Source: Nemertoderma westbladi
Taxonomy: Eukaryota; Animalia; Xenacoelomorpha
Direction of reading: 5' to 3'
Assembly (NCBI GenBank): GCA_032718475.1
Contig: JAUCBJ010006769.1
Span: 1 to 64,000, forward strand
Length of the DNA: 64,000 nt
This document shows, piece after piece, positions 12,567-64,000 of this stretch. A model generated the notes under the pieces. That model did not search any database and was not told where the DNA came from. It was given only the letters and a program-made list of their open reading frames with translations. Every line of letters begins with the position of its first letter. Position 1 is the first letter of the stretch. A program made the translations under genes and the position numbers.

Positions 12567-12689
12567 TTAACGTTTACACCCCAATTCCGCTTGGTTTATA
12601 TCTTGATTATCAATAAAATAGTAACGTGAAATATTTATGGAGCGTATATTTGAGAATGTTGAAATAATGCGTTTAGTAGTGTGACCAGC

Positions 12690-13370: not shown

Positions 13371-13468
13371 ATAATAACTAATAATCACGAACCCCATCCT
13401 CTTATAATATATAACTCTGTAGTAGTCAGTAGTAGTAGTAGTAATAGTAGTAGTAATAGTAGTAGTAG

Positions 13469-15569: not shown

Positions 15570-16812
15570 GTAAGGTATGTGTTATTGTCTGCTGTAGGCC
15601 TACCGCGTACAGTAGGACATAGAGTATATTCTTAGGCCGTGAAGATTTAGATTTACTGATACTTCGTAACAGTAAGGTATGTATTTTGTTTTTCTGTACT
15701 GCGTACAGTAAAGTAAGATTAAGATTACTGTATTAGGCACTGTACTGCGTACAGTAAGACATTAAGTATATTCTTTTAGGCTGATAGTTTAGATTACTGT
15801 ATTCACTGGCTGCGTACGATAGTACAGTAGTACATTAGGCTGATTGCTGTTACTGCGTACGGTAGAAGGACATTTGTTTGCCGTACCACACACACAGTAT
15901 CATTAGGCTGTTAGGTTGGTGTACTGTTTTACTTACTGTACTGCGTACAGTGGATGTACGATAGTGCGTTTTTGCTAATTGCGAATACAGCAGTTCCTTG
16001 GGCTTTAGGGCGAATTGTAATTAGTAAGTTTTTTGAAATTTTAGCTAGGTTTGCGAGAATTCAGTTTCGGTCAAAATTATTTTGTAAAATTCTAGAGTTT
16101 TGTACCGGTATGTTAGGTAACCGTTTAGTTATTTTATACCATCTGGAGATACATGGCAAGACGGAACTTCTGAGTTTGGGGTTCGTGTGGGTCTGCGGGT
16201 TCGGTTTGCAATCAGCGAAGGGACTGAATCTTTGGACGCGGACGTGGAATCTCACAGCAAACAAGGTTAGTTGTTCTGTTGGCACCACTGTGTTTGTGGA
16301 AGCAGTAAAAAATTACCGGTTGTTTAACTGCGAAGCTGAACTCAATTTATTAGTTAGGATATTTAGGTTTAGCCGGCCATGGTTTTTTGAATCGCTCAAG
16401 TTAGAGAGAGAGTTAGAGAGAGTCGCAACCCGAAGATGTAGCCACGCGCTAGTGGATACATATAATATTTGAAACTAAAATTACGTTGATTAGAGCTATA
16501 TATATATAAAATTAGAAATATTCAGGTGGCAAGTATATTTTGAATATTTTGTATTAGATTCAGAGTTATTTTGTGCTATACCGGTATTTAATATTATATA
16601 GTAGCTATATAATAATATTTTTGTTTAAATATTGTGCTAGTATTTGCTATAACTATATACCCCATTAAATTCACAATATTGCATTGCGAATTTATTTGAC
16701 ATTTGGACCAACTGATTATTTGACAAATAATTTGACCGTATTTCGGTTAAATTATAATTATATCTCGAACTTTTGCGAGATATTTTGCCGGAAGGCAAAC
16801 ATTATTTAGACT

Positions 16813-22800: not shown

Positions 22801-25200
22801 ATGGTAGCCTACCTTCGCCGAGAGGTAAGTCAGGACAAATTTGAGACGGCCTTTGTGACTTCTAGATCAAAGACAATGCCGGTCAAATACATGACTGTCC
22901 CTCGTGCAGAGTTACAGGCGGCTGTAGTTTCGGTCGAGGTAAGTAAGCAAATAACTGAGGAGTTAGACACGACATTGACCTTATTCTATTGGACGGACGC
23001 ATCCTTGGTGTTAGTATACATTGCGGCCGACAATATTGCACTAAAGACATTTGTGGCCAACAGACGCGCTCAGATCGTTGACTTTTCGACGAAGGAACAA
23101 TGGAGACATTGTCCGGGAGTGTTAAACCCGGCCGACATAACTTCGAGAGGTGCAATGCCGGCGGAATTCTGTCAGGAAGAGTCGCAGGAGTTTTGGTTGC
23201 ATGGACCTGATTTTCTAACGAGGACGCAGGAACATTGGCCAGAGCGACTAAAGATTGTGACCAATCCGATGCCTGAAGATGCAGAAGTCAAAGTGGAGAA
23301 AGTCTCTAAGTCAAAGTCTAAAGCCAAACTTAAGTCATTGGAGCGGCCTGAAGAGTCATTGGAGCGGCCTGAAGAGTCATTGGAGCGGCCCGGAGACCTG
23401 TCAGACCAACAGACTTACGTGACTACTAGGTCCGGAAGGGTAAGTTATGACATCAAACCACCCTTACAGACTAAACCGGAGTCACAATTGGTAAGTGACG
23501 GACAGAAAATGACCGACACAATGGAGTCTTTGGTTTCCAAACCTGCGGGTTTGGATTCGAAACTTCCATTAGTTAGCGGACAACCGTCGCTGGCATTAGA
23601 GCCATGTAGTATTTATGACAAATTACTAAATTCGTCTGCCTCTTGGCTGACAATTTGTAAAAGAACTGCGTGGTTAAGCCGATACATTTTGTACCTTTGT
23701 TTAAAACATTCGAAACATTTGAGAGAACCATTGAGCACCAATAGTGAGCGAATTCGGAAATTGAAACAACCTCTGACAGAGGATGAGATTGATCAAGCGG
23801 AATTAAAGCATTTGAAACATTATCAAATGTGTGCCTTCCCTAAAGAATTCCATCTATTATCGGCTCAACGACCAGTTCTCTATAAACCCCTTAGAAAATG
23901 GAGTCCATTAATCCATAAGGGTTTAATTTGTCATAGATCGAGAATCCAGACTGTCGACATAAACTCACAGTTTCGGTTCCCAGTGATAATCCCTAGTCAC
24001 CCAATAGAATTGCAAAGAGCGATTCTATGGGATATACACAAGAGGTTGCATCACGCGGGAAAGTTACACTGTTTGTCGGCAGCGAGACAGCGATTCATTC
24101 TATTGCAGCCAAGCAGGGCAGTCGGCACTATGTACGACGCCTGTCTGGTTTGCAAGAGGGTGAACGCCAGAGTATTGGAACAGGAGATGGCTGAACTCCC
24201 GGAAGCGAGAGTGCAGGCATATAACCCACCCTTTACGAACACAGGGGTGGATTGTTTTGGTCCGATTGAAGCAAAGAGTGGACGGCTGACCCATAAGCGA
24301 TGGGGTCTGCTACTGACATGCATGGCTAGTAGAGCCATACACATCGAGCGTGTGGCAGACATGTCGACCAAATCTCTGCTCCTGGCCTTGAAGAGATTTA
24401 TGGCCAGGAGAGGACTAGTAAAGGCGTTCTACTCTGACAAGGGTACAAACTTTGTCGGAGGGAATAGCGAGTTGAACGCGGCTCATAAAGCAGCACAGAA
24501 TAAGGAAATTTCTGCAGCACTTTTGCCGCAACGAGTAGAATGGAGATTTAATACTCCAGAAAGTCCTTGGAGAGGAGGAAGTTGGGAGCGTTTAGTTCGC
24601 TCTGTAAAGCAGGCCATTGCCAAAACATTGCCTGTAAACAAACAACTTACCGACGACGAACTGGTCACAGCTTTCATTGAAATCGAGCATACCCTAAACT
24701 CGAGGCCGATAGCTATGTTGCCAGACGGTGTTGCATTAACGCCGAATCATTTGCTAATGCAGAGTCCAGCATTTCTTGTGCCGGCATCAGAACCCATTAG
24801 TGCCGACCTATATAGTCGTAAAAGCTGGAAAGTAACACAGTTTGTGGCGTACACATTCTGGGAATATTGGCGGGAATACTATCTTCCCACCATATCCACC
24901 AGAACAAAGTGGTACAAAACGGTTCGGAGTCTCCAAAGGGGAGATTACGTATTGATAACCGAACCTATTGTCAAGAGAAAGTATTGGGAGACGGGAGTGA
25001 TCTTGCACACACACCCAGACGTGCAAAACATAGTGCGCACAGTCACTGTGAAAATTAGGTGCAAGTGTCCGCACCCAAAAAAGTGTAAAACTAATGGTTT
25101 ACACACCTTGGACCGACCGGTCCAAGATATCGTGTTATTAGAGGAGACACGTATCGAGACGGGAGATTATAGTTTGTCTCCTGCCTCAAAACAGAATTAG
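16813..25200 (+). CDS. BEL/Pao gag-pol polyprotein (Gag with triple Zn knuckle, aspartic protease, RT, RNase H, integrase)
   Basis: CWACLAPGHVRRQC and CMECGRLHHKLLH; MLDTAS; YLPHH...DIEAMFHQV...FYMDD; FSDAS; NPADITSRG; HHAG..CLVC; DCFGP, SDKGTNF, WERLV. Confidence 0.98.
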   Translation: MSVSDKEALEDSYETAAGPPTDDSVNITVDDNADYDDAASDADVSEQEDETVTSEEEQQPQVIVLGSPTATVRKDCTAARTEVSDREGSVAEARARSPVSRPVGMVSAVVPTAVRSTRSSRNNPSSPPSVSQVSERELDIAIKKKLRAHAGHITRTTDKVRKMLADSANIGREGLVEIRRGYNSALFKQTEELAVLAKKAVESQSSDVATRIYDRVLAALLEHRELSERFRRVRTENWLLWASQTQATQVSDADLRDLVEREEIQDKEERRYQREVTSWLMQNGVVVPGQVLPTTENIQQRTLTPPDDASRDSGDSQVSHARGKVICARSLVSHNSAEERRRRLDEQQAEVLRAQEARKEAERERERTRKLDAKLRELEEKGKREQAEREQEERELQLQREQEERELQLQREREERELQLQREREERELQLQREREREAKECEQRRRELQLERERKERELERERERRALYEEKARVEEEGAARRAREEEERKLAQLESARLSLESEERTRKANEIAEKGMRMIEECGASVGTELRELFALQKAEQEARTPTIRESTTTRIPIPGPAITSTRIAKPFSTYRTPVGIGASPIAQDPRHRNTAPLYTERENEEFRETPTGQVFGEPNPRVWITQTERRPSSTENFRVKPEEGSYERQRITQIEPTIQQNPSQEFITRDELSASLAQAISPHIQPITDMLSNLRLKEAAQVRSNSNPSRPELDKVQPSQRVRISEETIPHRPQVRTPVPNIHNPNFENSAEKFIQDAWVRASARKPSRALRTDTESSDEEEDMRRQKSRNYKERRTDAEQVSWNHRERTRLNNPAELNHLLTRNDATLRDIGKFAARQGLPTQQPQKFMGNHKHWRTFKTYVDEQLTNSTFTPNEKFNYLLQMLHREPRAIADNFVGNERAFELAMKTLSDIYGNKTKMAQSIVEDLGKGGRITTPLELLNLANAISNALDILRTVNLPHHGDHAEVLKSVIRRLNMRYRQKWRKLENKLEGQGKVLTLQHIHDMIATDAVAEMKSNFSEENMRESKPVTGKSMVSFDDDRTTVTFNSVDRYNSSTPAFRSDSRVWSGERLDRPRLKQQELPDGFAGCQYCLLKEVRSDDHKLDSCRRFKELNSEQRRVQVRTLDTCWACLAPGHVRRQCPNSKDGCMECGRLHHKLLHADFHTPTDRYLQRNPHRKGSKEPVSIRRNTYTGIQDDGYQPGSSDEDGESSAREVTCQGFTADSSSTSARTYLSSATSEIFSVIPVKLTGDKGSKRIYVMLDTASTLSYIDEEVARAVSSFQDAEEIQIELKSMHGVGDLNGHRISVELDSLLPRDQHTRQEWKALPLDGFKCLAMKGFGRQLGKVPPMSPIAQEYFDKLRIPRHQVGYRNVSMLIGAEQLIAHQIWETRPAEPHVNGPHAHRTILGWYTRVPMSYEFTGGDKPTNRYDELQPIIQPPLVEPPDIDEFRRTCIDHYSDFSESDEELIPDNVRLSEPLHNDRTDSEPEDYCYQTRGSGSTVHATYLTNVLTYTDIVEGQVAKYRDLDIFQYSEEELQKELIRQDLETGARTVEWLDRDAMEPGGYDLAMSTDEKRSLEMMEDTIRLLPTGHFEVGMLWRRQPPKLENNYSLALKRLNGVRARLLKNPDIREKYCAQINNYFAKGFAGKVEDPDLVTDQTYYLPHHYVTHPDKPDKVRVVNDCAAVYRGMSLNSELMDGPNLNNYLIGILLRFRQRRFAFTCDIEAMFHQVRACKADQDSLRFLWFENEDLSGPVVTYQMYVRIFGARDSPNGTLFVLKKTATAQIGKYPVEVIESILRNFYMDDGLVSKDTAEQAIEVAHGLQECLATGGFPLTKFTTNSEALLESFPVKDRGSGDIELGVEPIPMARVLGLAWNPNSDKFQVRVRFEPSSPDKVLTKRICLSTLSRLFDPMNFISPVILQARACMRKIWLSDVEWDEPISPIHAKQWREWEAELHLLKNIDVPRSYFPNQLVFPTDLELHLFSDASDTGFGMVAYLRREVSQDKFETAFVTSRSKTMPVKYMTVPRAELQAAVVSVEVSKQITEELDTTLTLFYWTDASLVLVYIAADNIALKTFVANRRAQIVDFSTKEQWRHCPGVLNPADITSRGAMPAEFCQEESQEFWLHGPDFLTRTQEHWPERLKIVTNPMPEDAEVKVEKVSKSKSKAKLKSLERPEESLERPEESLERPGDLSDQQTYVTTRSGRVSYDIKPPLQTKPESQLVSDGQKMTDTMESLVSKPAGLDSKLPLVSGQPSLALEPCSIYDKLLNSSASWLTICKRTAWLSRYILYLCLKHSKHLREPLSTNSERIRKLKQPLTEDEIDQAELKHLKHYQMCAFPKEFHLLSAQRPVLYKPLRKWSPLIHKGLICHRSRIQTVDINSQFRFPVIIPSHPIELQRAILWDIHKRLHHAGKLHCLSAARQRFILLQPSRAVGTMYDACLVCKRVNARVLEQEMAELPEARVQAYNPPFTNTGVDCFGPIEAKSGRLTHKRWGLLLTCMASRAIHIERVADMSTKSLLLALKRFMARRGLVKAFYSDKGTNFVGGNSELNAAHKAAQNKEISAALLPQRVEWRFNTPESPWRGGSWERLVRSVKQAIAKTLPVNKQLTDDELVTAFIEIEHTLNSRPIAMLPDGVALTPNHLLMQSPAFLVPASEPISADLYSRKSWKVTQFVAYTFWEYWREYYLPTISTRTKWYKTVRSLQRGDYVLITEPIVKRKYWETGVILHTHPDVQNIVRTVTVKIRCKCPHPKKCKTNGLHTLDRPVQDIVLLEETRIETGDYSLSPASKQN

Positions 25201-25939
25201 TGTTGGACGCAACTCACTTCGTATGCATTCCTCGTATGCAAATACAAGGAAATGCATAGGAGCGGGGTTGTGGTGATTTGCGTTGAGTTTTGTCTGGTGG
25301 GTATCAAAACAAAATTTTATTTTCAAAATTTTTGGAAAATTAGAAAATTTTAAAAATTAGAAGTGAACCCAAGACAATTCCAGACGCTGTGTATAGACGC
25401 GTTTTAGAATTCGTCTATAGATAAACAGTAATTTGAAAAGTCGTGAAGCCTGGAAAATAGCATTTAGAAACCATGGTGACGGCTATATTACGTAGGAGTG
25501 TAAATTGAGTTTAGCAACTTCCACAGATTGGTGCCAACAGTGCAACTAAGGTGCTAAAGGTTAGTAGCACCAGAGGCGTACATGGACCCCACTCAGTAGT
25601 TTGCAGGATGTGTGATGTTCGATTATCAAACCTGTGGGTTTGGTATAGTCGAGTATTGTGGCTATAGTCCTTTCTAACTACTGTAGTTTAGTAACGAGTA
25701 ATGGGAGTAGTTTGGGCATCAAAAAGTGAGTTGGTCACGGCCAGTTTATCTCCAAACTTTTTGCGCTATGCATGGGAATAGGTTAGAGAATAGTTAGTTA
25801 GGAAGAGACGGGATCTAGAGAGTCGAACCTGAACTGCTGGAAGGCGGGGGGGTTCGGGAGGTCTGTCCTTCGGCGACATCTAACTGATTACCCACAGTGT
25901 AATTGGTTTGCGTAACGGAACACTTATTGGGATATATAT

Positions 25940-27024
25940 GTATATACGCGGGGCGTAATAGAGAAGGATATTAGAGCGCAACCGCGCAGGGGATTTACTG
26001 CCAGAGAGGAGGCGGAGTTACCATTCGCGCGACCGGGATGTAAAGATTCGAACGTTTACTACCATGGGCGGTCGGTGATGGAGCTAAATGGGAAATACAA
26101 ACCCACGATTCCCGACCGACTAGACGAGCAACATCCAGAACCGATATTAACGCGTTGTCAAGCTCACCAGTTCCTTAGATATAACGAGGGAGGTTACCCG
26201 ATGAGCGACCCGATGATCAGTATCGACTTCGGCGAAAGCGACCTCCGAGACCCATTACGCCGACCGTTACGACTTTAGATCCGTATACAGAGATTAAACC
26301 TGTTCGACACCCGCTTTGATAGACACGGCGGCGGCCATTTCGCTATACCGAGCCTATAAAGACCTAGAGGCGCGGCGCGAAGCGGTACGGGACTCGAGTT
26401 CCTGGACCACGTTCACTTCGCTTCACCAGGAGAGGAAGGTCACGCCTGAGTATCCAGGCGAGATTCGCGCCGTCCATCCGTCTACTAACTATACCCACGA
26501 TCCGCGGTTTATACGATATTTACTCCAAATTATTTCGGGAAGTTTCGACGAACGCATTATTAAGCCCGAATATGTCCAATCCTTTATATATCATCGTCGC
26601 TCTGATATATACGTCTAGATTTATTACCCAGCGCACAATTGGCGGCCTAAGGAGACTCGTTTGGGGTCATTGACCTCTGAACGAGTGGAGGATCAGGACC
26701 GCCGCGCCCACAGCGACAACAGCCGGAGCTCACAGCTCGCGGCAAGTACCAGAAGGAGGAGTCCTTGGCAAGCGTCAAGCCAAGGACGAGCAGTTCTATT
26801 CGACGGTTGAAGAAAAGGAGTTGGCGGAGGCGCCCACAGGGACACGGCAAATGGGACGAGGCCGAGGGAGGAGCACCAGTCAGGAGATAGTCGGTGCCCA
26901 GGGAACGTCGTCGCCGGTTCCGGGAAGTGACGCCTCAAGGACGCCGTCAACAGAGTCTACAGGGGGTAGACTGGTGTATCTGGAGAAGGGAGCGAGCCCG
27001 AGAGACCCAGGAGCTAGCCGATGA
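25940..27024 (+). pseudogene. Decayed accessory ORF of element A, homologous to 52230-54544
   Basis: Homologous blocks PRRGFTAREEAELPF, PEPILTRCQAHQFLRYNEGGYPMSDP, SLYRAYK, HDPRFIRYLLQI and GRGRGRST, split by stops and frameshifts. ATA lies where B has ATG. Confidence 0.8.
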
Positions 27025-27887
27025 GACTATAATATCACGGAGCGACAAACTCTAGACATATACATCATCGTCGCTCTGATGTATATCGTAGGTTTTGATC
27101 AATCATTCGACTGGACTCATATACACTAGTCGTATCCATATTTTAGAATTTTATTTTCGAAGGCCGAAAAATATTGAAAGGAAATACTTTATTTTGTAGT
27201 CCGATTGGAAATAGTAAATACTTTAACTATATTTGATTTTGTGTATATGACTTTATTTGCTCTAAAGTTTATTGAAAGAGGCAAAGGAAGTGATTGGGGA
27301 GACAAACCCGCGGGTTTGGCTTACTCCTATCACTTACCTGAGCAATCATCAAACCAAGATGATTTGCGCTTTTATAAGAAATTAAGTAAAGTCCGAAAAT
27401 GAAAGAAATTATTACGTATTTTATATTTAGTTTGATTATCGGCCTTTAATGCAATTTAGTTAAAAATTTAGCCTCAAATACGTTTATATTTAGTTTATCT
27501 TGTTAATGTTGATCGTTAATTTGAGATGGGAAATGGGGGACATTGTCCTAGCCATGTTCCATTTCAATAGGTAGACAGTCAATTTGTAAATAAATAAAGG
27601 AAGTAATATTTTTGTAATTTAATTTTGTATGTAGTAATCATTATGTAGAACGAATGAGAAACAGTATTTTGTAAATTTAATTTGTATGTAATAATCGTTA
27701 ACAGTGAGAGAGATAATATTTTGTAATTTTAATTTGTATGTAAATTCATTATGCAATATCTATGGCAATATTTGTAAATAGTAGAATTATTATGTTATTT
27801 AGATTGGTTGGAAGAAATTTATTTTGTTTTGTATACATCACCTTATACTCTTCTACAATTGGAGGGAAACATTGTATGATTTCCCTT

Positions 27888-27894
27888 GGAGCGG
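27888..27894 (+). other. Plus-strand priming tract (GGAGCGG) of element A
   Basis: Directly abuts the 3' LTR TG. The same heptamer abuts the LTR of B (51421-51427). Confidence 0.7.
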
Positions 27895-29995
27895 TGTTAC
27901 GGTATATGGCGCTGTATCCATATTATTAGTCATCATGCAGTATGCAATATTAGTCCGTTATACTGTACGTAATATTAGTCCGTTGTGCAGCATAATATTT
28001 TAGATAAGGCATAATGACGCAATGATATTTAGATAGGGAAATCGGAACGCCCATATATTTGCATCCATTCATTTTGTATAGTATGTAGCCCTACCTACGT
28101 AATTTTGTATTAGGTTATATGTAGATAGTTCCAGGGTAAGTTTATTCGGACCCTGGATTCCGTGCTTGCTGATATTAGCTTTAGTAGGGCTAGCATATAG
28201 GGACGCCGTCCTGGCCATTCAGTAGCCAGAGACGTGAACCATTACCATATATGGTAATAATTTGAGCAATAGGGCTACAATCCGGCCTCCTTATTGGATT
28301 AACTGCTTCCAGGTTGGTCTAATGCTAGCATGGACTGGAGAGCCAATAGGAGAGCGATTGAGTCACCCTATTGCATCATCCCACCCGGATCACCTATAAA
28401 TTGGCGGTGTGCCGGTAGAGCCTGTTATCAATCTCTCACTCACATGACACATTCTCACTGCTGTTGAGCTGTCTCTAATTTTGTATTAGGATATCGTACT
28501 TTCTGCAATTTGCTAATTTGATTTTTTTCGTGAAATGATTTGCTAGTGCGATTACTTGCTTGTGTTTCTCAATAATTCCTTCGATTACTGCTAATTACAA
28601 TTGAACTATGATTTCTACTCTTTGATTAATGGTTCTATGTGATTCTTTTCTGCGCAATAATCCTAAGGGATTTCTGAGACTGTCAGACTTTGTGATTTGC
28701 ATGCGCCGCTACGGTAGCTATTAGCATAATGGAGGGCTAAGGTGCCAGTGGGCGGTGGGCTCATCGGGGGGTTAGCGACGAAGGGAGTGCGGAGGATTCA
28801 AAAGCGGGCAACGCTGGCGGGGGTCAACGTTGTGGTCGGGCAGTTTGGACTGTGGGTTGGAGACCGCTCGCCGGTACAGTAATTAGGGGGCTGATGATCC
28901 AAGGTTTTGTCTCTATTTAGTATTAGGGGGCAGGAATTGGGTTAGTTAGGAAGCCTAGATGTACCCGGGAGGGGCCTGCATACCTTACAGTAAGTAAGTA
29001 AGGGGGTAAGTACGTAAGTAAGTTGCGAATTATATAATTGCAGATTGTATAATTGCAAGTCGTGCTATTGTGATCCGTGATTGCTGACTCTGATTGATGT
29101 GTTACTAAAGTGTGCCTAAGATTACGAATGCTTAGATAGGCGCTCTTTTCCCTTTGATTGATTTCTATCTCTTAGTTTACTGTAAATAATTACTGATTAG
29201 GTCAAAGTAATACAGTATTTTAGGCTGTTACATATTTGTGACTGTAATTAATTAGTAAAATTAAGAATTAGTACGCAGCATAGCGGAGAGTAGCTAAGGT
29301 AATAATTAGAGTACCGTAAACTATTCACGCTGAGCGGTTATTTGAATTAGCGGGCAATAAACTAGATCGCAATAGTTAGTACGCAAGACACTAGTAAGTT
29401 GCTGGCCTAAAGCCAGCTGCAGGCAAGTTTAGACCCAGAGCGGTAACACCTACGAAAGACATTGTACTGTATCATTTTGATTATTTTAAATATTCTCGCA
29501 TTCACACATTCCGTTAGGGAACCCTCAGTATTCGCGATTAGAAAAGACGTAAGCATTGGCGTATTTCAGTAGTAAAATTAGGCGTAAGAATATACTCTGA
29601 GTGCAAAGCCCCTCGCACTCGTCTTAAGTAAGCTTAGGGAGCCGACTCGGGTTTATTGTTTTGGTTATTCCCGCGTGGCTCATAGATTCGAACAGTTAGC
29701 TCTCTATCGAGCGATCGGTAGAGAAAGGAACAAGCGATTTTGCAGGAGCTGTGTAAATTTAGTAAAATATATTAGCGGACGGCAGATTAGCGCCATCCAA
29801 CGGTAAGTAGCGGTTTTGTATTTAGCAACCCTTACAATTTAGTAATAGCACACTCCTGATCCCCTTTACTTAACAGTAGAGCAGTCTTTGTGTCTTATTG
29901 GTTAGGCGAGAGCTCATTAGGTTGGCAGAGAGGTATACGGGTATTTGTCTGTTCAACAGTTCTGCTGTTAGTATAGGTGTCGCGGTTGTTTAACA
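27895..29995 (+). repeat. 3' LTR of element A
   Basis: Direct repeat of the 5' LTR, followed by the TSD. Confidence 0.98.
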
Positions 29996-36995: not shown

Positions 36996-37057
36996 AGGTC
37001 TTAAATGAGAGTCTTACAAATTCGAACGTCAACGAACAAATTCGACGGTTACTGTTC

Positions 37058-51420: not shown

Positions 51421-52229
51421 CCGCTCCATGAAAACAGGATATTATCGTGCATAAAATATACGGTTTTCACCAATAATCAATCAAACTATAGAATACTTAG
51501 GGCGTACTTACATATTTACAATTAAATTTCAAACAATACTTCCTTTCTTCGTAATGATTCGATACAAAATAATTACAAATTCAAACTTTACGTATTTAAA
51601 GGCTTTACTAAGTAAGTACAATATAAATCTAAATTAAATTCACCAATATAAATCTATTGCATCTCAAATATTGCATAAATTCAAACAATTACAAATACAA
51701 ATAAATGTAAACAATAAGAAAGGCTCGCAAGTCTTCCATCTACTATTGCATCCCAAATATTGCATAAATTCAAGTAATTACAAATACTTTCGTACCTAAA
51801 TGTAGATTGCATAAGTTTGGAATAATTACAAATATGAGTCTTTCTGAGCACAAAATTTTCTGTCTATATAACTTTCTCTTTTACACTGTAAATACAAATA
51901 CTGCTTATAAAATATAGTATTCGGAACAATACAAATTGCATAAGTTTGGAATAATATTGCATAAGTTCGGAATAATTACAAATATAAAATATAAATTCTT
52001 ACTAAATATAGATCTTACTAAATATAAGTCTTTACTTAAATATAAATATAAACTGCATAAGTTTAGAATAATATAAACCTTTGCATCTCAAATATGAAAC
52101 ATAAATCTTTCAAATATAAGTTCCTTCTAAATATAAACTTTGTTTTCTAAATATAAAACATATAATTCAAAATAAATCACAAATCATAAGAAAGGCCCAC
52201 GAGTCTTCCGTCCACCCTTGCCCTCCCTT

Positions 52230-53666
52230 TTATCGCTTAGTAGATCGAGCCCTGCCGCGTCCTCGAAAACTGCGCACAGGTGACTTTGCTCGCGATATGG
52301 GACTAATGGGGCGAGTCACTGGTTTACTTGGGACGTTGAGAGACGGTGCGACTATTTCCTCACAAATTCGTCTATTTGGCATCCCAAAACCTCGACCAAT
52401 TCCTCGTGACCGATCAGTTGTGGCTACAGTCGGTAGAACGTCTGGGAACGCGTGAGAAGCGGACGACGCAGACCCAAGAGTAGCTTGCGCCCCCTGTTGA
52501 TCAGCTGGTGTATGTCCCGATCCTCCTACCGGTTCTCTTGGAAGTGATACCGTATCCCGAGTAACTCGAATAGTCGGCTCAACTCCCTTACGTTCTTCCA
52601 CATTAATAATTTTCTTCAATTGTTGGCCCACCTTCTGGACCCGTATGATCCTACCCTGCCCGTCCTCCCGAGGGTGACGTGCAGACGGCGCAACCGGAGT
52701 GGCTGGTATATTCGTCGCCTCTAGGACCTCTTCTTCCTCGAATACGCTCGCTCGTATACGTTTATGGTAAAACGCGGCTCGGTACGCCCATGCGACGGTT
52801 AACCAAGCTCCTTTATTCCGCTTTTCGGTTCGGAAACGATCAAATTCACCATACGTGATACGATTTACGACTTTCTGAAAATTCCACGTGTTCTTGTTAT
52901 CCGGGTGAATCTGTAACAGATACTCGCGCACCACTCGGAATCCGCTGTCGTGGGGCAAAATATCAACAACCTCGATAAGTTCGTCATATTGGGGCATAGC
53001 GGAGATATATCCTTCCGACATCATCGTCTGAGGATTTACCGCCCAAAATCCGAGATGCGCTCTCATCGGAAACCGTCTTCTCTGTGCCGATACATGTTCG
53101 TCGGCTAAATCTTCCCACTCATCAAATAACTTCCTCACGAGTTTTACAGATTCGTGTTCATAAGGTATGTCTCTCAGTTGGCATTCAGATGCTCGATGTC
53201 CCTTTATATTGCAGTAAGTACATTGAGCCATAAATCTCCAGCAAGTATAAAAGGTATGAGACCCTTGATCCCCACACCATCCACAGATTAGCTGAGTCGT
53301 AGTAATGTGCTTTCCACTGCACTTTGCCATATGATGTCCAGCGACGCCACATTTACTACACATCGTATTAGCAGGGTACCACACTCGTTCGTATATAAGA
53401 TCTCCAATCGGTCGAGCGCTTCCTCCCATACTATAATCGTAATCATCTGGGTCTATGGGTTGGTAGGTTTCTGAAGGTTGTATACAAACTATAGCATCTG
53501 TTGCTTCGAGTTGTCGAATCTCCGTCTGAGATTTCTTCGGGAGGTTCCTTTCTATCTCAAGAAGTTCCTCTAAAGGATCGTCGGCGATCGTAGTAGTTAC
53601 GTTGAATTCATCACCAAGGTGACCGATAGGCGCACGCGTCTGCCGTGATTCATCCGTAATCTCCAC
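52230..53666 (-). CDS. Accessory protein, C-terminal part: three CCHC-type knuckles and an RG-rich basic tail
   Basis: CSKCGVAGHHMAKC, CGWCGDQGSHTFYTC, CTYCNIKGHRASEC; RGRGRARS. Overlaps the upstream ORF, so probably one frameshifted gene. Confidence 0.75.
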   Translation of the reverse strand: MEITDESRQTRAPIGHLGDEFNVTTTIADDPLEELLEIERNLPKKSQTEIRQLEATDAIVCIQPSETYQPIDPDDYDYSMGGSARPIGDLIYERVWYPANTMCSKCGVAGHHMAKCSGKHITTTQLICGWCGDQGSHTFYTCWRFMAQCTYCNIKGHRASECQLRDIPYEHESVKLVRKLFDEWEDLADEHVSAQRRRFPMRAHLGFWAVNPQTMMSEGYISAMPQYDELIEVVDILPHDSGFRVVREYLLQIHPDNKNTWNFQKVVNRITYGEFDRFRTEKRNKGAWLTVAWAYRAAFYHKRIRASVFEEEEVLEATNIPATPVAPSARHPREDGQGRIIRVQKVGQQLKKIINVEERKGVEPTIRVTRDTVSLPREPVGGSGHTPADQQGAQATLGSASSASHAFPDVLPTVATTDRSRGIGRGFGMPNRRICEEIVAPSLNVPSKPVTRPISPISRAKSPVRSFRGRGRARSTKR

Positions 53667-54544
53667 GATACGTTTTGAGCAAAGTTTATGCTCTCGAAAA
53701 CTTCCGGTGTCATCTCCTTAGCTGAAGTTTGATCGTGTGACGTCCAATGGCAAGGTAGGCTCGCGAGTCTTCCACCCCATTCTTCCATCTCACCTTTCTC
53801 GAAAGCCTTGTAGGCTCTGTATAGGCTAAGAGCTTCTTTCTTTTCGCGGGTTGACTGATTCGCCTCGTCCAGCGTAAGTTCAAATACATCGGGTTCAACA
53901 ACCTTAGGTGGGTAAATGACAGTTTCTCCCGCCTTTGGTCCGGTCATAGCAAATGAGTGATATGGATTCGATAAAGGATACCCTCCTTCCTGGTAGCGTA
54001 GTTGTTGATGATTCGAACACCTCGCCAATATCGGTTCGGGATTTTCCTTATTCAAACGCATCGGAATCGCATTTCGTTGTTCGCGCATACAAGAACCGCA
54101 TTGATAATAAAGTTTATAAACTGAAAATGCTTCTTTGGTTTCTCTATCGTCCCCTCGAGTTCGTCTGTAAAGATGCATTCCATCGAATTCATCTCTTACC
54201 GCGGGCATAGGTTCGTGCGCCTTTAGGTATTGCATGGTATGATACAAACGACTAATTTCAGTATCGGGGTCTTCGCTAATGTCTCCCGTATCACACAAAG
54301 CGTCGTACGGGTAAAGTTCATTGAAGGTTTGGCGCAAACTTTCGATTCTTTCGTTTAATGCGTTTTGCCTTCTCTTTAATACATTCGAGTCATATTTAGT
54401 TCTCGCGAGTTTCGCTGTACTTTCCGATAATTCTTTTATACCAAATATAGTATAATCCTTGGCTCCAAATCTTTCGAATGGCGCTGCTGCCTCCTCTTGG
54501 ATATCATATCCCCATCTCGGCTCTCCTTGTGTCCCTTTCTCCAT
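53597..54544 (-). CDS. Accessory protein, N-terminal part (unknown function); probable start MEKGTQ
   Basis: Long open frame with a homolog in element A; preceded by a branch point and acceptor. Confidence 0.7.
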   Translation of the reverse strand: MEKGTQGEPRWGYDIQEEAAAPFERFGAKDYTIFGIKELSESTAKLARTKYDSNVLKRRQNALNERIESLRQTFNELYPYDALCDTGDISEDPDTEISRLYHTMQYLKAHEPMPAVRDEFDGMHLYRRTRGDDRETKEAFSVYKLYYQCGSCMREQRNAIPMRLNKENPEPILARCSNHQQLRYQEGGYPLSNPYHSFAMTGPKAGETVIYPPKVVEPDVFELTLDEANQSTREKKEALSLYRAYKAFEKGEMEEWGGRLASLPCHWTSHDQTSAKEMTPEVFESINFAQNVSWRLRMNHGRRVRLSVTLVMNST

Positions 54545-55210
54545 AATTAGAGGTGTAGTTACATAATCATTACTACTAGAGGGAATACAACAGAGTTTGT
54601 GGTTAGTTGTGAGGAGACGTGAGAGTTTCGTCTGCCCTTTGGGCTTCGACAACGCTCTAACCTCCTACCCATAGCCTAAGATCTAGGGTTTCTTTAATGA
54701 CACGCTGCTTCTTATCTAAAATTTTTTTTTTGCCGAAGTAAAAACGAATTTGGGCTAAACTGGCCGTGAGTCTAAAATACTCACTTTTTGATCCCAAACT
54801 ATTATCAGAAAATAAGCAATCAAGAATTAGTAATAAATATAGGGGAGTCAAATTTGACGTAACTTATTGAAACAAGACCGTGTAAAATTTAATTAAAATT
54901 TTTAAGAAAGGCTCGCAAGTCTTCCTCTCTTGTTTCTCTAATTTTAAGTTCCACCCGACTGTACCCTGAAATCTATTCACTGGAGAAAATTTTAAAAAAT
55001 TTTTCAAATCCAAATGGATTGTCTAAAATTTCGAAAATGTCTCAATATTGTGAGTTCCAAGTAGAATTCCATTTCTTATACCTCCAAATCCCGCTCCTAT
55101 GTGACACATAAGGGTACTACCCTCAATGTTCACATATAAAGACAATGGAATTCTACCGCTGTCCTTACTACGGTGTACAGGTACGTGGAAATCTATTTGT
55201 AAACTCCTAA

Positions 55211-58200
55211 TTATTTACTAGTATTAGGTGGAGATTTGTAATCTCCAGACTCGTTACGAGTCTCTTCAAGAAGTACAAGACGTTGAGTCGGTCTGTCTAC
55301 TGTACGACCGTCAATTGTTCGTACCGTCACAGTTCTTGTCACTCCATCCATAGATGGATGTGTGGCTAAAATGACACCTGTTATCCAGAAGCGTCTTTTT
55401 AGATTCACTTCTGCCAACAGCACGTGATCTCCCGGCTTTAATGCGCGGGTGTTATTATACCAGTTTGTTCTGGCAGAAATAGAGGGCAAATAATGGTTTT
55501 GCCATATTTCCCAGAATTTGTTAGCCAGTAGTTGCGTGATTTTCCACGCTTTTCTCCCGTAACTATCGCTTTCCATTGGAATGGAAATCGGTGTCAAAGT
55601 CGTCGGTGCCTGCATTAGCAGGTGTGCCGGTGTCAAAGCAAACTGGGATTGTTTGTCATCGGGTACTAATACTATTGGTCTAGTATTTAGTATTGCCTCG
55701 ATTTCAACAAACAATGTTGTCAGTTGGTCGTCTGTTAATATGTGGTTTACTGGAATGACCTTTGCCATTGCTGTCTTTATAGATCTAATCAGTCTCTCCC
55801 AGACTCCGCCTCTCCAAGGACTATCTGGAGGATTGAACTTCCAAACAATCTTGTGAGGTTGCAGTTCGTTTGAGATTTGATCATGATCTAATTTCTTAAA
55901 GGCTCTAGCAATTTCATTCCGAGCACCAACAAAGTTTGTCCCTTGGTCTGAGTACAAGCATTTTACTAGTCCGCGTCTAGCGATAAATCGCCGCAGTGCT
56001 AGTATAAACGCGTTGGTGGAAAGATCCATCACACGTTCAATGTGAACTGCCCTACTGGACATACATGTGAAAATCAGTCCCCAGCGTTTTACTAGTATGC
56101 GTCCACGTTTAGTATGTATGGGACCAAAGCAATCAATTCCAGTCTCTGTAAAAGGTGGTCTGAATGCTTGAAGTCGTGCTTGTGGTAGTTCACTCATTTC
56201 TTGGGTACCTATTCTAGAATGTACCTTTTTACAAATAATACACGTACGTGTCACTGAACTTAATGCTTTACTGGGTCTAATTAATACAAATCTAGTACGT
56301 AAGTAGGAAAGACAGTGGTGTCTTCCAGCGTGTTTCAGATGTAGATGTGCGTCCAGTATCATTGCACGTTGTAGTTCGTGGTGTTGCGGTATTATTATTG
56401 GGTACCTAAAGTTCGTGTTAAAGTCAATGTTTTGAAGCCGAGATTTATGACAAATTAAGCCATTATAAATTATCGGACTCCAACTCAGTATCGGTGACGA
56501 CTTGATTGGTTGACCTTGATGTATAGATGTGAATTCGCGCGCGAAATATCGCAGTTGATAATGGCGAATTAATATAATCTCACACCTGTCAATCTCAGCC
56601 AATGTAAGTCGACGTGTGAAGTCACGTTTGCCTTTAACGTATTGTACAAAACGTACAATCCACGCTAATTTTCGGCAAGCGTTTGACCAAGAGTCTGTTA
56701 AGTTTACAATACGGTCGACGTAAGTATTTGTGACGTCATCAGGTAAGTCAATGGAGAACTTGGAAGGTTTTGAATTACTAGAAGGGCCCACGGGTCCGCC
56801 GGTAAGTATTCCCTTGTTGACTGTTGATCCGTCCGGGTCTACAAGTAATTTGTCCTTCTTTGTCTTCTTACCTTGATTGTCGGTACTTTGTAAGTCGATC
56901 GCTAATGGTGGTTTGAACTCTATGGGGTCAGCAGGTTTTGGTAAACTTAATTTTCTGCCGACATTAATCCCAGGTCTCAACGTAGGTTGCAAGTTCGGTA
57001 TGTCTCTTGAGCGCAAAGTAACACCTGTATTTACATTAGCGTAGGTACTACCCACATCTGCAATACATGAGGTTTCACCATGCTTATGGTTGCTCAAGTG
57101 TGTCAAAATTGGTAGTTTGTCAATACAAGGCCGCTCCAATAGAGAAACTGCGGCTTTATTGTTAGTCAATACATTACTAGTGTCTAGTCGACTGTCTAGT
57201 AGTGTGTCTGGCGATACGTCTGGTAACGTATCTGGTTGTTTGTCAATAGAAGGCCGCTCCAATAGAGAAACTGCGGCTTTACTGTTTGTCAGTGCGTTTC
57301 TAACGTCTGGTGGAACATTTTGTGATATGTCTGGCAAAATGTCTGGTTGGCTGTCTAGTAACGTGTCTGGTTGACCGTCTGGCGATATGTCTGGTTGACC
57401 GTCTGGCGATATGTCTGGTGTAGAAAGGCTCGCAAGTCTTCCTCTCTTGACCTTTGAAGTTATATCCTTCCATTTTGCCTTCGGTTTCTTCTTGAGTTTC
57501 GCCGCCGTTGTCTTTTTCTTTGTATCGACGGGCATTGTTGGTGTCGTTGGGGTAGGTAGACTCGCAAGCCTATCATCTGTCGTCGATGGAATCTCTAGCT
57601 GACTCGTCTTCTCCCCAAGTTCTAAACTCACCTTGTGGATTAGCTGCTCCTTGTGACTTATCATACTAGTTACACGTCTGTTATGTTTTGTATGTAAGGT
57701 AGTATGGTCTACGTCGTGTGAAAAGGAATGAATTGAATTTATAGTTAATAAACTACATGTACTCTGTACATCGTCTTCCTCGTCACTTACGTCTAGTGTG
57801 CGCACAGGCGCTCGAGTATACCACCCTATCGGCGTTCTGCAGGCGTATGCGTTTCCTGCTACAACTGTCGATGGTCTGGTTTCCCACACCTGATGTAGGT
57901 TGAATTGGTCCGTCCCGATCAGCATTGCTACCGATCTATAATTGGCAGGACATTCGGGTACACCAAGGTGTCTAAAATACTTACGGTCCTCTAGAGATTG
58001 TGCCGGCACTGGACCTAGTAGGTTACTAAAGTCCTTCGTGGCCGCAAAGGTTAAATCTCTAAAGGGTAACAAAGACCTCTCCCTCTCGCTGTGTTGCGAT
58101 TTTGGAAGAAGAGAGTCTAAGTCTAACTTAACTCGTGTCACTGGTATTGCACGCTGTCCGTGCATACTACTTACTGTATAACTGACGTGCTTACCTTGTC

Positions 58201-59129
58201 TAAGATCTGTTACGACGTCAGCTATCTTTTCATCTACGTAACTGTGAGATGAGGCTGAGTCTAGAATCGCGTAAATCCTCTTACTTCCTTTTGTGCCAGT
58301 AACTTTAATCGGGATTACACTGAATCCCTTCAGTTGGTCAGTGGTCAGGAGCGCGATTGACGGTTGTTCGTCTCCATTTGAATATTCGTCGTCTTCTGAT
58401 TCTTCGTCCGACGATCCGGATTGTTCTGAAAAGCAATCCTCTATATGGGTCACGAAAGTCGGAGTCGTTTTCGATTCCCGTTTTCGGTAAGCCGCATCAC
58501 ATCTCGCTGCTGCTTCCGGGTGTTCCCTGGCGAAGCGTTTCGTCGGCGTGTGGCTGTCTGTGTGGAGCAGACCGTCGTGGTTGCGTCCACAGGATGGACA
58601 AGTGTCGGTATTTGGGCAATCCTTACGGACGTGTCCGTGTCGCGTACACCGCCAACAAGAGTCCAGTGGCCGTATCTGCAGCCGTCGTTCTTCTGAGTTC
58701 AACTCGCGAAATTGTCGACAACCTCGTAACTTGTGACCAATATACCGCTTACCTAAATGTTCGCAGTATTGGCAGCCGTTGAAGTCGGCGCTGAGTTGCT
58801 GTCTCGTCTGTTTCGTTCCAATGGGCGCAGATACTCTATTACCGTCTGAGAATTGTCGTGATTCCGTCGGTGTGGCGTAAGTGGCCGTCTTTGTGGATGT
58901 TGTCTGGGGTTTTTGTCGGTTGGAGGATGGCAGTGTGATCCCTTCTGCCACGATGTGCTGGTCGGTATAGTTAGATCGAGTCTCTACTACCGCCTCCCTG
59001 GATATTAAAAGGTACACATCTTCTAATTTTAGGAATCCTCCTCGCTCCTCTCGCTGATATTCGACCTTCCTCCACTCCCGACGAAGTCGATGGTGGAGTC
59101 GTCCTATTATCTTTAATAACGCTTGTGTC
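55211..59129 (-). CDS. Element B polyprotein, 3' part: Gag knuckles, protease, linker, integrase (no RT/RNase H)
   Basis: CWRCTRHGHVRKDC, ILDSAS, RTPIGW, low-complexity linker, HAG..CIIC, DCFGP, SDQGTNF, WERLI. No YxDD or DAS motif. Confidence 0.92.
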
Positions 59130-60316
59130 CTTTTGGGCTCCTCCCCGAGGCGCACCCATGAGGCGGACACCTTTCCACCACCCCTGGGGCCAGTCCGACA
59201 GATGTTATTATCAGACCGGGCCGGAGGGTGGCCTGATGCTTCCCGGGTTCTGTTTTCGGTCCCCCGATCACACCAGCACAGCTCGTCGAACGTGTAGCCA
59301 GATGGGCGGCTACTGTCAACTTACTGTGGCCTGACTGTACATTGAGCCAACTCAAAGTATAACAAAGAGTCAACCGGCAGGTGGACCAGTCGATAGCGAT
59401 CGAGCACCAAGGTCGCCCTTGGGCCTAACCGACGGTCTTGTCCCATGTGGGCTTGCGCTACCCAACATGGAATATTGACACGTTTTCACCTGCCTCGCCG
59501 GCAGTATTGAGGGGACACCGTTCCTCAACAATACTGACTAGCTCGAAAGCTAGAAACAAGTAACCACTTACCCGTCCTGTACACGTGTACTCAACAGATG
59601 TTCACGAAATCAAGTACACTACGGTAAACACAAATCTGACACATACCATGCACACACAGAGGACATAATCGGGTAAAGACAAAATCGGGGTCAAAATCAG
59701 AAGGGACAAATTGTATCGATCGGAGGCAAATCGAGAGTACCTTACTTTGCCGTCAGGGCAAAATAACTTTGTGTGCACAAAGTATGCTGGGGTGCAGTAA
59801 AGTATGGTCCTACTAATACCAGCGGCGTCTTGTCCAACTGGTAAGGGTTCCCATACCCACTCGCAGTGGCCACACATACAATCACATGTACTCACGTACC
59901 CACAGCAACAGAAAGCTCAAAGCCCGACGGTTTATTCCAATGCCACCAAAGACCAATCAGCTGAACATGGAGACAATAACATATAGTATCAAAAAAACGG
60001 AACAGCTGATGGTCAATGGAACCATCCAAGCCCCAAGCAAACTGCCACTGATCGCCCACATACAAAACATAGTCCACGCCACATGAACCACAAATCACGC
60101 CATGCCACCACCCCTACTGTGTACAGGACTGGCAGTACGGCAACAGGCCGACTAGACGGTACCACGGCACCATGGCAATTCATGGTTCGTTAGACACGAG
60201 GGCCTTAAGTATCTCCCTAGCACTATATACCCCAATTTAACGTGCCCCCAGACCCTCACGAGTCCGCCGCCGCCTGTTACAGTCACCCCTATAGAGACCT
60301 CACCTCTTTAGGTAAC
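59130..60316. mobile_element. Unclassified 1187-bp insertion in gag of element B
   Basis: Flanked by TGTC at 59126-59129 and 60317-60320. Removal restores YGNTPTQALLKIIGRL in frame. Confidence 0.8.
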
Positions 60317-63232
60317 TGTCGGGGTATTTCCGTAATCCAGTTGTCCAATTGATCTTAAGGTAGTGATAGCGTTCTTAATCTCGTCGGCCAGTTTTAGTAA
60401 GTCGACGGGTTTAGTGATAGCCCCTCCCTTACAGAGTTCTTCTATTACTGACCTGGCCATACTTACTGTACCTCCGTATATCGAAGTCAAACGATCGTAC
60501 GCTAGTTCGAAAGCGTCTGGTACACCGACGAAAGTCTCCGCCAAACGTTTAGGTTCTCCTGACAACGTTTGGAGCAAGTAATTGAACTTCTCTCGTGACG
60601 TAAAGGCGCACACGGCGATCTGGGATTCGATATAGTCTACGAAGGTATGCCAGTGTTTTGAGCTACCGGAGAACTTCGGTGGTTGTTGTACCGGCAATCC
60701 CTGTCTGGCTGCGAATTTCGCTATCTCCTCGGCAACGTTCAGAGTTTCGCGTCCTTGGTTGGTAACCTGGTTGATGTTCTCCCTTCTAGGCGCTTTTCCC
60801 TGATACGATGTGGGGTTTGAAGGTACCGGTCTTTGTGGTCCCTTCGGGTGTCTATTGTGTTCGAATTCGGAATTTCTCGAACTGTCGGTGTAACCTTCCT
60901 CCAGACGTTCCTCGATCTGAGCCAACTTATTGACAACTGGTCGCAGAATGTCGGCGAACTGTTGTGTACTAATTGCGTCCGTTGGTTGTAACGCCTTCTG
61001 TGTTGGTGTATTCTGTGGAGGATTGTCTGCAAAGGAGTTGTCTGAACGCTCGCGTTTATATTCATCGGCCGCCCCTGTTCTAAATACCTCGCGTTTCGGG
61101 TAATCCGATTCGCTCGAAGTACTACTATCATCTGGATATGGTGGTCGACGTGCTCGCGTCCGTTGCGTCGTTCGAATTCTAACGGCTCGTTTCGGAACAT
61201 CGTCCACTGTTCTTCGTTGTTCGGTAGGCTCACAAGTCTTCCTCGAAGTCGTAGATTGCGATGTAAACTGAACCGGTCGCGTATCCACTGTTCTCCGTTG
61301 TTCGGTAGGCTCACAAGTCTTCCTCGAAGTCGTAGATTGCGATGTAAACTGAACCGGTCGCGTATCCACTGTTCTCCGTTGTTCGGTAGGCTCACAAGTC
61401 TTCCTCGAAGTCGTAGATTGCGATGTAAACTGAACCGGTGGGCGAATGACAGCATTTGAAACCGCTGGCCTTATAGGTCGAAACGTCATTGGATAAGCGT
61501 AATGTGTAACGGGTTTAGGTGTCAAAGGTGGACTCACCTGTTTTGTCGTCAGTAGTGCGGGTCCGGTCAATAAACTACTACGATCCGTAATCGGTGGGTT
61601 ACTTACCTTGACTCTCGGAATAGGCGACGACGTTGCTCTTGGCGGTATAAACTCGTTCGGAATAACAAACCTATGTTCCGTCGCACCATGGATAGGAGAA
61701 ATATCACTACTACCCGCAATCGAAACAGGTTCCTTAGTCGTAACCGGTGCAAACATATGAGTTACCTGTGGGAATCGTTGACACACGTCTTTTACTAATT
61801 GTCGTTCCCGTCCGGGTGCTCCTACGCTTCCTTCCTTCTTCCGTTCCTGAATTTGGCGATGTCTTACCTCTAACTGGTCCAAATCATGTCCGTCGCGAGA
61901 TCTCATCGATCGATCGCGGGCTAGAAGATCCAGATTTTCCTTAGTTTCGGCTAATTCTCTCGCCCTCTTCTCAAGTTCGAAACGAAGTTTAACTTCCTTT
62001 TCTCGTTGTTCCGTTTGTTGTTGTTGCGCCTCGAACTCTGCTTGTCGTATCGCTTGTTGGGCTTTTATTTGCCGTGTCTTCATCTCGACTCTGGCTTCCG
62101 AAACTAATCTTTGTCGCTCTAACTCTGCCGCAGCCGTTTGTCGCTCTAACTCTGCCGCTGCCGCTGCCGTTTGTCGCTCTAACTCGGCTGTTGCCGTTCG
62201 TTGCGCTAACTCGGCCGCTGCCGCTTGTTGGGCAATGTCCAACTCTAACCTTTCCATTTCGGCCGCTTCGAGTTCGGCTTGTTCCTGCAGATGAGAGATT
62301 CTCGCTACATTCGCAACACGTATTTTCTCTTCCTCTACTGCTGTTTGTATCATTAGAAGTTGAGCTTGTTCTTCCATCTCGTGTTGCTGTCTGTAGAACT
62401 GTTGCTGTTGTCGAGCAACTTCTGACGTGACTATACTTCCCTCGCAGATTTCGCTACGAATACTTACCAATGATTGATTTAGTATTCCCGGTGCCGATTC
62501 GATTTGTGCGAATGGAGTTTCCCTCGTGTATTCCGACACGGTTTCCAAATCGCCGACGTCTTCGCCGCACATGCGTAAGTGGTCCGTCAGGTGTTTTAAT
62601 TGTCCATCCAGTCGGTACAGTTCCTGTTCTTCCTCGGGTTGTAATAATTCGTCCGAAACTGACTCACCTAACAACTGGTCCGCTTGTTCCTGTTGTATCT
62701 GTCTAATCGTCGACTTAAACTGAATCAGTTTCTCTCTAGTGATCATTAGTTTCTCGAGGATTCTAAGTTGAGTATCCATGTCCTGTCTCTGTCTAGCTAG
62801 ATCTTGTAGGCCAACTAGATTATCTACGGACTTATATACTTTACTCTGTACTCTAACCTGGAGGGTGTAGAACTCGAATCGAGACATCGGAGCGGTCAAC
62901 CCGTCTAATATGCGTTGGCCTTCTCCAATGCTCCTGGTTATATGCGCCATATATCCTCCGACGCTTCTAACCACACTTTCTGTGCTTCCTGCTGAACTTA
63001 CCAATTCCGTTTCCCTATGTCTAGGTTGCGGAACAGTTAGAAAGTCCTCGGTCCTGCCGTCGCCTCGTACTACGGCATCCGGTACTCCCGTTGGATGTAC
63101 TGGTGACGCACACGGTGTAGGTTCGGTAGGCTCGCGAGTCTTCACCTGTTGTTCTTCCGCTGCTGACTTATCTCCGTCACACGAGTCATAGTCGGTTTGT
63201 GTATTCTTCGTATAGTCTTGTTTGTCACTCAT
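60317..63232 (-). CDS. Element B Gag, N-terminal part (coiled coil + DUF1759-like)
   Basis: IAKFAARQGLPVQQPPKFSG...EKFNYLLQ matches element A. Contains an 81-bp triplication at 61200-61440. Confidence 0.92.
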
Positions 63233-64000
63233 TTCGGTAGTTGTAAGTCAAGTGAAGTGAGTGTCAAAGTATCGAGTTTACCGTATTTGTATAAGACGGT
63301 ACTAATTACAGTCATATAAAATTAGCCTACCGGCCGATTTTATAGCAGATGGATAAAATTAGCCTAAACGGCCAATTTTACAGCAAATAAATGTCACGGG
63401 ATAAGTATATAATAAAATTAGCCTAGCGGCCAATTTTATAACAAATAAATCGGATAACGATATGCGTTATCAAAAGGTAAATTAAATACAATAATACGGA
63501 CTAATTCAGCAATGAACAAAGAAATCATACGTAATGCATAAATACTTGAGACAGTGGAACCCACAATAATTTTAACTAATACGGTAATGCCTAACTTATT
63601 TATGCAACTTTTCGAACTCACCCACTCCAATAATTCTCCAGAAAAACAGATTCCCAGATACAAACCGAACGTGAACCTTTCCGTTTTTAACGTTGCGGAC
63701 GAAACGCGATTTTCCCAACCAAAGTTGTTGAGTTATCTATCTCCCAAACTTGCTAAACACGGTCTTGCTCCCGTTACAGTCTAGAAATGAGTTCTGAATC
63801 CTGAAAAAACAAAAGAGTTAGGTTTTACTTTTACGAAAAATTTTGTACCGGTACAATATGGTATTTAAACCCTTTTTAAACACCGGTATTCAATTCCAAA
63901 AATATTTTACACGCGGTTCAAATCAAATTTTATTTCAAAAAATTAGCACTTAGCTAATCAAATACAAATTTTTACCTCAAAATACAAAATTTTCAAATAA

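Follow-up and report, generated by a model that had tools for sequence, protein, structure and literature searches.

In its first 64,000 nucleotides (nt), the whole stretch analysed here and hereafter termed the window, contig JAUCBJ010006769.1 of the Nemertoderma westbladi assembly GCA_032718475.1 carries two related retrotransposons of the BEL/Pao type, elements A and B, each of which is studded with copies of a short hairpin closed by a YGYG tetraloop (Y being a pyrimidine). Element A (13468..29995, plus strand) is an apparently intact and young BEL/Pao element. Its long terminal repeats (LTRs) of 2102 nt differ at 2 positions and are accompanied by a likely 5-bp target duplication, and its open reading frame (ORF) of 2796 amino acids (aa) contains all four Pfam families that mark BEL/Pao, namely DUF1759, Peptidase_A17, Integrase_H2C2 and DUF5641. 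In both elements an N-terminal extension of ~850 aa stands ahead of DUF1759 (A 16810-19300; B 60730-63247), and the two extensions are not alignable to one another; that of A includes 33-nt repeats at 17942-18199, coding ERELQLQRE-type coiled-coil-like sequence. An ORF3 region downstream of pol is also present in both elements, and in A (25916-27024, plus strand) it is split across several frames.

Element B lies on the minus strand, with its 5′ LTR outside the window, and belongs to a family that is highly repeated in contigs of public DNA runs. ORF1 (60308..63247, 979 aa) consists of the long N-terminal extension with the Gag domain DUF1759 at its end, whereas ORF2 (55211..59320, 1369 aa) encodes the C-terminus of Gag, a protease, a linker and an integrase. 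Compared with A, the Gag C-terminus and protease are 37% identical and the integrase 46-52%, and the linker of ~295 unrelated residues replaces the ~800-aa reverse transcriptase (RT) and RNase H part of A. Among the BEL/Pao marks, B retains DUF1759, DUF5641 and H2C2 (the last below the Pfam cut-off), without Peptidase_A17. Three zinc-knuckle-like motifs are found in the Gag of each element, one of them being a canonical CX2CX4HX4C. Downstream of pol lie ORF3a (53597-54664, minus strand), part of which is homologous to A 25937-26212, and ORF3b (52230-53717, minus strand), whose three canonical CCHC knuckles amount to a second nucleocapsid (NC)-like protein; the two ORFs overlap but use different frames, and 53670/53674 is where the contigs of other copies diverge.

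Two lesions mark this copy. A 1.2-kb stretch at 59119..60314 separates ORF1 from ORF2, and because contigs of four runs join both sides of it, it must be an insertion private to this copy. At 57523 the contigs of three DNA runs diverge on both sides and the depth dips, although one contig among those listed does bridge the position; we infer that this breakpoint is the junction of the RT/RNase H deletion. Lacking RT/RNase H and bearing the 1.2-kb insertion, element B is a damaged relative of A and not its intact counterpart.

The hairpins of element B were counted with the pattern AGGCTCRCRAGTCTTCC, allowing at most two mismatches. This gave 10 matches, all within 51721-63144 and none elsewhere in the 64 kb (shuffle control: mean 0.01, largest value 1), with starts at 51721, 52193, 53757, 54909, 57426, 57555, 61226, 61307, 61388 and 63128, which confirms the ten positions that an earlier note on this DNA had listed. 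Those at 61226, 61307 and 61388 fall within one 81-nt tandem triplication and thus count as one site, so that the 10 matches represent 8 independent sites. A relaxed pattern, RGACNYGYGNGCCY, in which the closing pair is free, matched 11 times, always on the minus strand within element B, against 0.06 expected. Together with a covariance model built from aligned copies of both elements' hairpins, it added two degenerate copies at 56784 and 53628, and the total for element B, with a copy whose arms are swapped included, came to 12 copies at 10 independent sites.

Followed in the direction of transcription, all on the minus strand, the first copy (63128..63144; sense TGAAGACT-CGCG-AGCCT) lies at residue 35 of ORF1, ~29 codons past the first Met, and copies 2 to 4 (61226..61404; starts 61388, 61307 and 61226), with the loop TGTG, are those of the 81-nt triplication at ORF1 residues 615-669. 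The swapped copy is the fifth (57555..57571, core from 57558). It reads AGGCT-TGCG-AGTCT in the sense direction and differs from the standard core by two transitions, both synonymous in its reading frame, by which the A.C mismatch of the middle pair becomes G.U while the sense loop is still YGYG (TGCG). The sixth copy (57426..57442; GGAAGACT-TGCG-AGCCT) is at residue 627 of ORF2. It is followed by the degenerate seventh (56784..56797; GGACC-CGTG-GGCCC; 14.2 bits), in which the closing pair is C-G as in A and the A.C is kept. Copy 8 (54909..54925) is non-coding and stands 286 nt past the pol stop, ahead of ORF3, and copy 9 (53757..53773) is within ORF3a; the degenerate copy 10 (53628..53641; AGACG-CGTG-CGCCT; 12.4 bits) has the closing pair G-C and also keeps the A.C. 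The last two copies are number 11 (52193..52209), with the loop CGTG and a closing pair U.G, ~20 nt past the ORF3b stop, and number 12 (51721..51737) in the AT-rich 3′ non-coding region. Between them runs an AT-rich tract of short repeats (51760-52190), at which the family copies in contigs show many length variants, the contig joints skipping 126-308 nt.

In element A the corresponding pattern RRACC-YGYG-GGTYT is found at 6 sites where 0.27 would be expected (starts 17113, 18681, 21302, 23539, 25628 and 27304), and the covariance model adds a degenerate seventh copy at 20013 (20.6 bits, E 0.005). Over the whole window the model gave no match with E < 7 outside A, B and the upstream flank of B, and each hairpin motif is thus confined, within the window, to its own element. 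A genome-wide mobile mini-palindrome was considered and rejected, since no copy in the window lies outside A and B and none is found in the 1.2-kb insertion. The palindromic elements of Rickettsia are small mobile palindromes of 100-150 bp that sit within the ORFs of many genes and leave the frames unbroken; the motif described here likewise occurs within ORFs, but it measures 14-20 nt and is confined to its own retrotransposon. Known RNAs were also set aside, Rfam giving 0 matches at gathering score in the whole window and a tRNA search 0.

Several lines of evidence place the signal in the nucleic acid. Within the one continuous ORF of A the motif is met at frame offsets 0, 2, 1 and 0 and yields unrelated peptides, whereas in B its coding copies fall into two frames (KT[CR]EP in ORF1, GRLASL in ORF2 and ORF3a), with four of the 12 lying outside coding sequence. 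Three frames in A, two in B and the non-coding copies thus bear out the claim of the earlier note that the motif acts at the nucleic-acid level. They also rule out a peptide motif or protease cleavage site, which had been considered because some copies code [KR]P[AV]GL or RLASL. Splice sites were rejected as well, as the borders of the motif carry no consistent GT or AG.

The positions of the hairpins run parallel in the two elements, as had been claimed: for each of the six A sites then recognised, the corresponding inter-domain segment of B holds a copy as well. A 17113, near the start of the ORF (residue 102), corresponds to B 63128 (residue 35), and A 18681, in the middle of the N-terminal extension (residue 624), to the triplicated site at B 61226-61404 (residues 615-669). 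The copies behind the protease, A 21302 and B 57555, share the same offset, 77 aa past the last alignable residue of the protease block. A 23539, before the integrase, is matched by B 56784, ~10 aa from the aligned residue; A 25628, between pol and ORF3, by B 54909; and A 27304, after ORF3, by B 52193. The flanks of these paired sites are 20-38% identical, which is about random, and the 14-nt cores share 6-9 positions. The seven sites of A are evenly spaced (smallest gap 1289 nt, P = 0.001; for the six original sites P = 0.0024). Those of B are spaced no more evenly than by chance (P = 0.48 for the smallest gap and 0.14 for the coefficient of variation), as is expected of a copy with an internal deletion.

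The loop of the hairpin is common to A and B, as the earlier note had seen. Its positions 2 and 4 are G at every one of the 17 independent sites, and positions 1 and 3 are only C or T (T at 15 of 34). If CGCG is taken as ancestral, the loop has undergone 15 changes, every one a transition and all on a single strand; the chance of this is P = 3e-5 as to the strand and 0.0075 as to the restriction to transitions. Decay of CpG was rejected as the cause of YGYG, because CpG is not depleted in the elements (observed/expected 1.08 and 1.15) and TG is not in excess over CA; in the background YGYG is the rarer form compared with CRCR (142 vs 167 in A, 144 vs 163 in B). The constraint on the loop is single-strand-specific, and the loop alone does not tell which strand is active. 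Such a one-strand constraint argues against a site in duplex DNA. Palindromic sites for a dimeric DNA-binding protein would explain the inverted-repeat arms on either side of a 4-bp centre, and an A.C or G.U in the RNA would be irrelevant to them. Yet the centre is asymmetric and has the same orientation to transcription at 12/12 independent sites other than CGCG, and the positions of the closing pair covary, being neither fixed nor freely varying, so that we consider this explanation extremely improbable.

Pairing of the arms was tested on an alignment of the 16 original copies, with an 8-bp stem and a 4-nt loop, against 500 shuffles. Paired cells amounted to 85.7% compared with 68.8% in the shuffles, and the covariation score was 0.544 compared with 0.248; neither value was reached by any of the 500, and slid registers scored lower. 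Of the closing pairs in B, 9 are U-A and one each U.G, C-G and G-C, and the A.C mismatch is retained in 11 of the 12 copies. The core of B (AGACT..AGCCT) differs from an A variant (AGACC..GGTCT) at 3 of 10 stem positions, that is by one compensatory change of the closing pair (2 positions) and one change that creates the A.C; the outer extension of the stem differs between A and B too. The earlier note had the stem replaced concertedly at all sites, and this does not hold: with so few differences from A, and with degenerate copies that keep C-G and G-C, the stem of B, as judged from its sequence, is modified rather than replaced.

At this point it may be asked whether the hairpins do anything at all. 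Copies spread or homogenised by recombination or template switching could be tolerated in loosely constrained linkers, and all of them do lie in poorly conserved or non-coding segments, one site is tandemly triplicated, and extra conservation among family copies is not significant. That said, two lineages with randomised flanks have kept the architecture and the placement, the loop guanines are invariant at 17/17 sites with one-sided transitions only, the closing pair shows compensatory changes and the spacing in A is even, all of which makes a motif devoid of function very improbable in our opinion.

As to the strand, for 5 of the 6 isolated hairpins of A the sense form is the more stable, and in context the mean pairing probability is 0.80 for sense and 0.56 for antisense. 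Single-sided changes, at A 18681, in the flanks of A 21302 and A 25628, at B 52193 and at B 57555, all give G.U in the sense direction, where the antisense strand would have C.A. The sense strand would thus appear to be the more economical reading for both elements, with B ambiguous.

We favour, while rating its chance as less than even, the possibility that the hairpins are dispersed sites on the genomic RNA which are bound by the zinc knuckles of Gag and mark that RNA for packaging. A stem-loop with a stem of 5-8 bp and a YGYG tetraloop recurs along B in 12 copies and along A, where the stem is a related one, in 7. Its active form would be the genomic sense RNA rather than a DNA strand, its reader would be the knuckles of the element's own Gag, and RNA so marked would be selectively packaged; the family-specific stem, including the conserved A.C of B, may give each lineage a specificity of its own. 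The model for such a reader is the NC protein of HIV-1 (human immunodeficiency virus type 1), whose two knuckles are reported to bind guanines 2 and 4 of GGAG and GGUG tetraloops (PMC7599994). The hairpins here resemble stem-loops SL2 (GGUG) and SL3 (GGAG) of HIV-1 psi in having a short stem, a tetraloop with G at positions 2 and 4, and a Gag with CCHC knuckles encoded by the same element (PMC7599994). They differ in that 7-12 near-identical copies extend over ~12 kb, both coding and 3′ non-coding, and leave the leader free, in that loop positions 1 and 3 are pyrimidines, and in that binding is here predicted from sequence.

The same strand-specific and structural evidence would suit another reader on the sense RNA, either a host RNA-binding protein acting in export, localisation, stability or escape from silencing, or a protein from the ORF1 extension or ORF3. 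Both elements have the unusual ~850-aa N-terminal extension and an ORF3, and ORF3b of B has three CCHC knuckles. A single host reader, however, fits poorly with different stems in two elements of the same genome. As for another protein of the element, ORF3 of A is split over several frames although A is young, and a Pfam search gave no candidate domain in ORF1 or ORF3a. We regard these other readers, taken together, as distinctly unlikely.

A number of observations weigh against Gag-bound packaging sites. The evidence base is two elements in one window, and the covariation lies mostly between two related groups, so that independent events are few; in the pairing test the count of pairs changed on both sides (5) was reached by 284 of the 500 shuffles, and that of further pair types (12) by 371. 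A 221-nt stretch of family contigs contains 6 variable places, none of them within the 34 bases of the two motifs; with ~0.9 expected there, this is not significant. Recognition of the loop guanines alone leaves the uniform stem within an element unexplained. No copy is present in the LTRs of A or in its 1.2-kb leader, the copies being spread over the whole internal region, whereas the packaging and dimerisation signals of retroviruses and Ty1 sit in the LTR/5′ leader (PMC4974528). In nine distant BEL/Pao loci from metagenomes (partial; integrase 31-36% identical), no dispersed hairpin family was found, taken as a hairpin with shared arms in at least three dispersed copies, and the trait is therefore not general to BEL/Pao. 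Finally, the A.C mismatch gives the sense hairpins of B a low predicted stability (-1.8 to -4.9 kcal/mol), with a mean pairing probability in context of 0.12 compared with 0.52 for antisense. The strand assignment of B thus rests on analogy with A; B is ambiguous here, in line with the earlier note, which had left both DNA and RNA as the recognised form in view of the A.C mismatch. With the sense hairpins of B so weak, minus-strand hairpins and RNA palindromes are both real rivals.

In the first of these, the hairpins would form on the antisense strand, most likely on minus-strand complementary DNA during reverse transcription, and act as points of pausing, strand transfer or recombination. 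What is A.C in the sense strand of B becomes G.U or G.T in the antisense strand, and the latter is predicted to form the more stable hairpin in 7 of 10 isolated copies as well as in context. A process travelling along the template would be in keeping with the regular spacing. The deletion junction at 57523 falls between two hairpin copies 130 nt apart, but it is 32 nt off the nearer one and not at a hairpin. Since the sense strand is favoured in A and the single-sided changes listed above become C.A on antisense, this role seems quite unlikely to us, and we know of no precedent for minus-strand hairpins in such a role in reverse transcription.

In the second, which is the main rival, no protein reader is necessary: the hairpins would be palindromes of the sense RNA whose copies pair with one another, either between two genomic RNAs as a multi-point dimer linkage or within one RNA for its compaction, and the family-specific stem would limit pairing to RNAs of the same lineage. 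Any YGYG can pair with any other YGYG, with C-G or U.G at the four positions, while the antisense CRCR can do so only if it is CGCG, and this accounts for pyrimidines alone at loop positions 1 and 3. In cofolding, the centre of the sense homoduplex is paired in 14 of 14 motifs tested. These continuous homoduplexes have energies between -17.6 and -37.7 kcal/mol in A and between -8.2 and -23.9 in B, which lie well under two hairpin energies; mean duplex energies are -28.9 kcal/mol for A-A, -19.7 for B-B and -11.3 for A-B. Such pairing works despite the weak B hairpins, and palindromes are known dimerisation sites of retroviruses and proposed ones for Ty1 (PMC4974528). On the other hand, the B copies with compensated closing pairs, 56784 and 53628, would not match the rest and fit only a hairpin or pairing of the same site, and same-site pairing alone leaves the uniformity of sequence across sites unexplained. 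The hairpins of A are stable and need to be melted, the duplex of B keeps two A.C mismatches, and known dimer sites number one to three and lie in the 5′ leader. The likeness to retroviral dimer-initiation palindromes and to Ty1 PAL thus consists in a self-complementary genomic RNA that can change between hairpin and intermolecular duplex, whereas the present sites are many, extend along the whole RNA instead of one to three 5′ positions, and need G.U for self-complementarity of the centre (PMC4974528). Taking both sides together, we judge it unlikely that the sites serve as RNA palindromes.

Returning to Gag as the reader, the earlier note had proposed a lineage-specific self-recognition barcode co-evolving with an element-encoded protein, and as a candidate this is reasonable to infer. 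In a fuller form, which we put forward as rather doubtful, the evenly spaced identical hairpins would be a lineage "address label" whose guanines are read by the Gag knuckles and whose stem sets the specificity. If this were true, packaging by co-resident elements would be restricted to each one's own RNA, and RT-less derivatives could be carried along by the parent element as long as they retain the labels; this would hint at the way in which related elements within a genome separate their RNAs and deleted copies remain mobile. It would also be the first such system of dispersed packaging signals for an LTR retrotransposon, and an example from nature of a barcode and its reader in co-evolution.

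Dispersed packaging signals, as in packaging-signal-mediated assembly, have been proposed for several single-stranded RNA (ssRNA) viruses and hepatitis B virus (HBV), consisting of many stem-loops along the genome, within coding sequence, that have a loop motif in common, in HBV RGAG (PMC6281560, PMC7612645). The hairpins described here share these features. In the viral signals the stems are degenerate and only the loop is common, unlike the present stem, which is near-uniform within an element and differs between elements; in addition, the carrier here is an LTR retrotransposon, to which the idea of dispersed packaging signals would be extended. Among the papers listed by literature searches, titles and abstract openings named neither a dispersed packaging-signal system in an LTR retrotransposon nor a study of how BEL/Pao RNA is chosen for packaging or of cis-acting hairpins in these elements.

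Further relatives were sought among other sequences. A protein scan of viral_contigs gave no relatives, a protein search with the Gag-protease part gave no match at E <= 0.001, and scans of viral_contigs for the motif turned up one match per contig, in 2 and 14 contigs, which were taken as chance. Four of the nine metagenome loci carry one YGYG hairpin each, the same palindrome in three of them. This is AAGAT-CGCG-ATCTT, a perfect palindrome in identical context at position 3009 of locus L001, 164 of L002 and 154 of L003. As it is upstream of the integrase match in two of the loci and downstream in one, it may lie in an LTR.

The remainder of the window contains other repetitive sequences. A Helitron-like element (921-9226, minus strand) has Helitron_like_N, PIF1 helicase and DUF6570 in its ORFs and includes ~20 tandem 51-nt repeats at 7907-9175 that are open in both strands. 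A satellite-like array at 36260-37050 is built of palindromic units of 22 and 30 nt (GCCTCAGTGAGGC type), and two other tandem arrays are present at 12287-12618 (13-nt unit) and 41216-41619 (24-nt unit).

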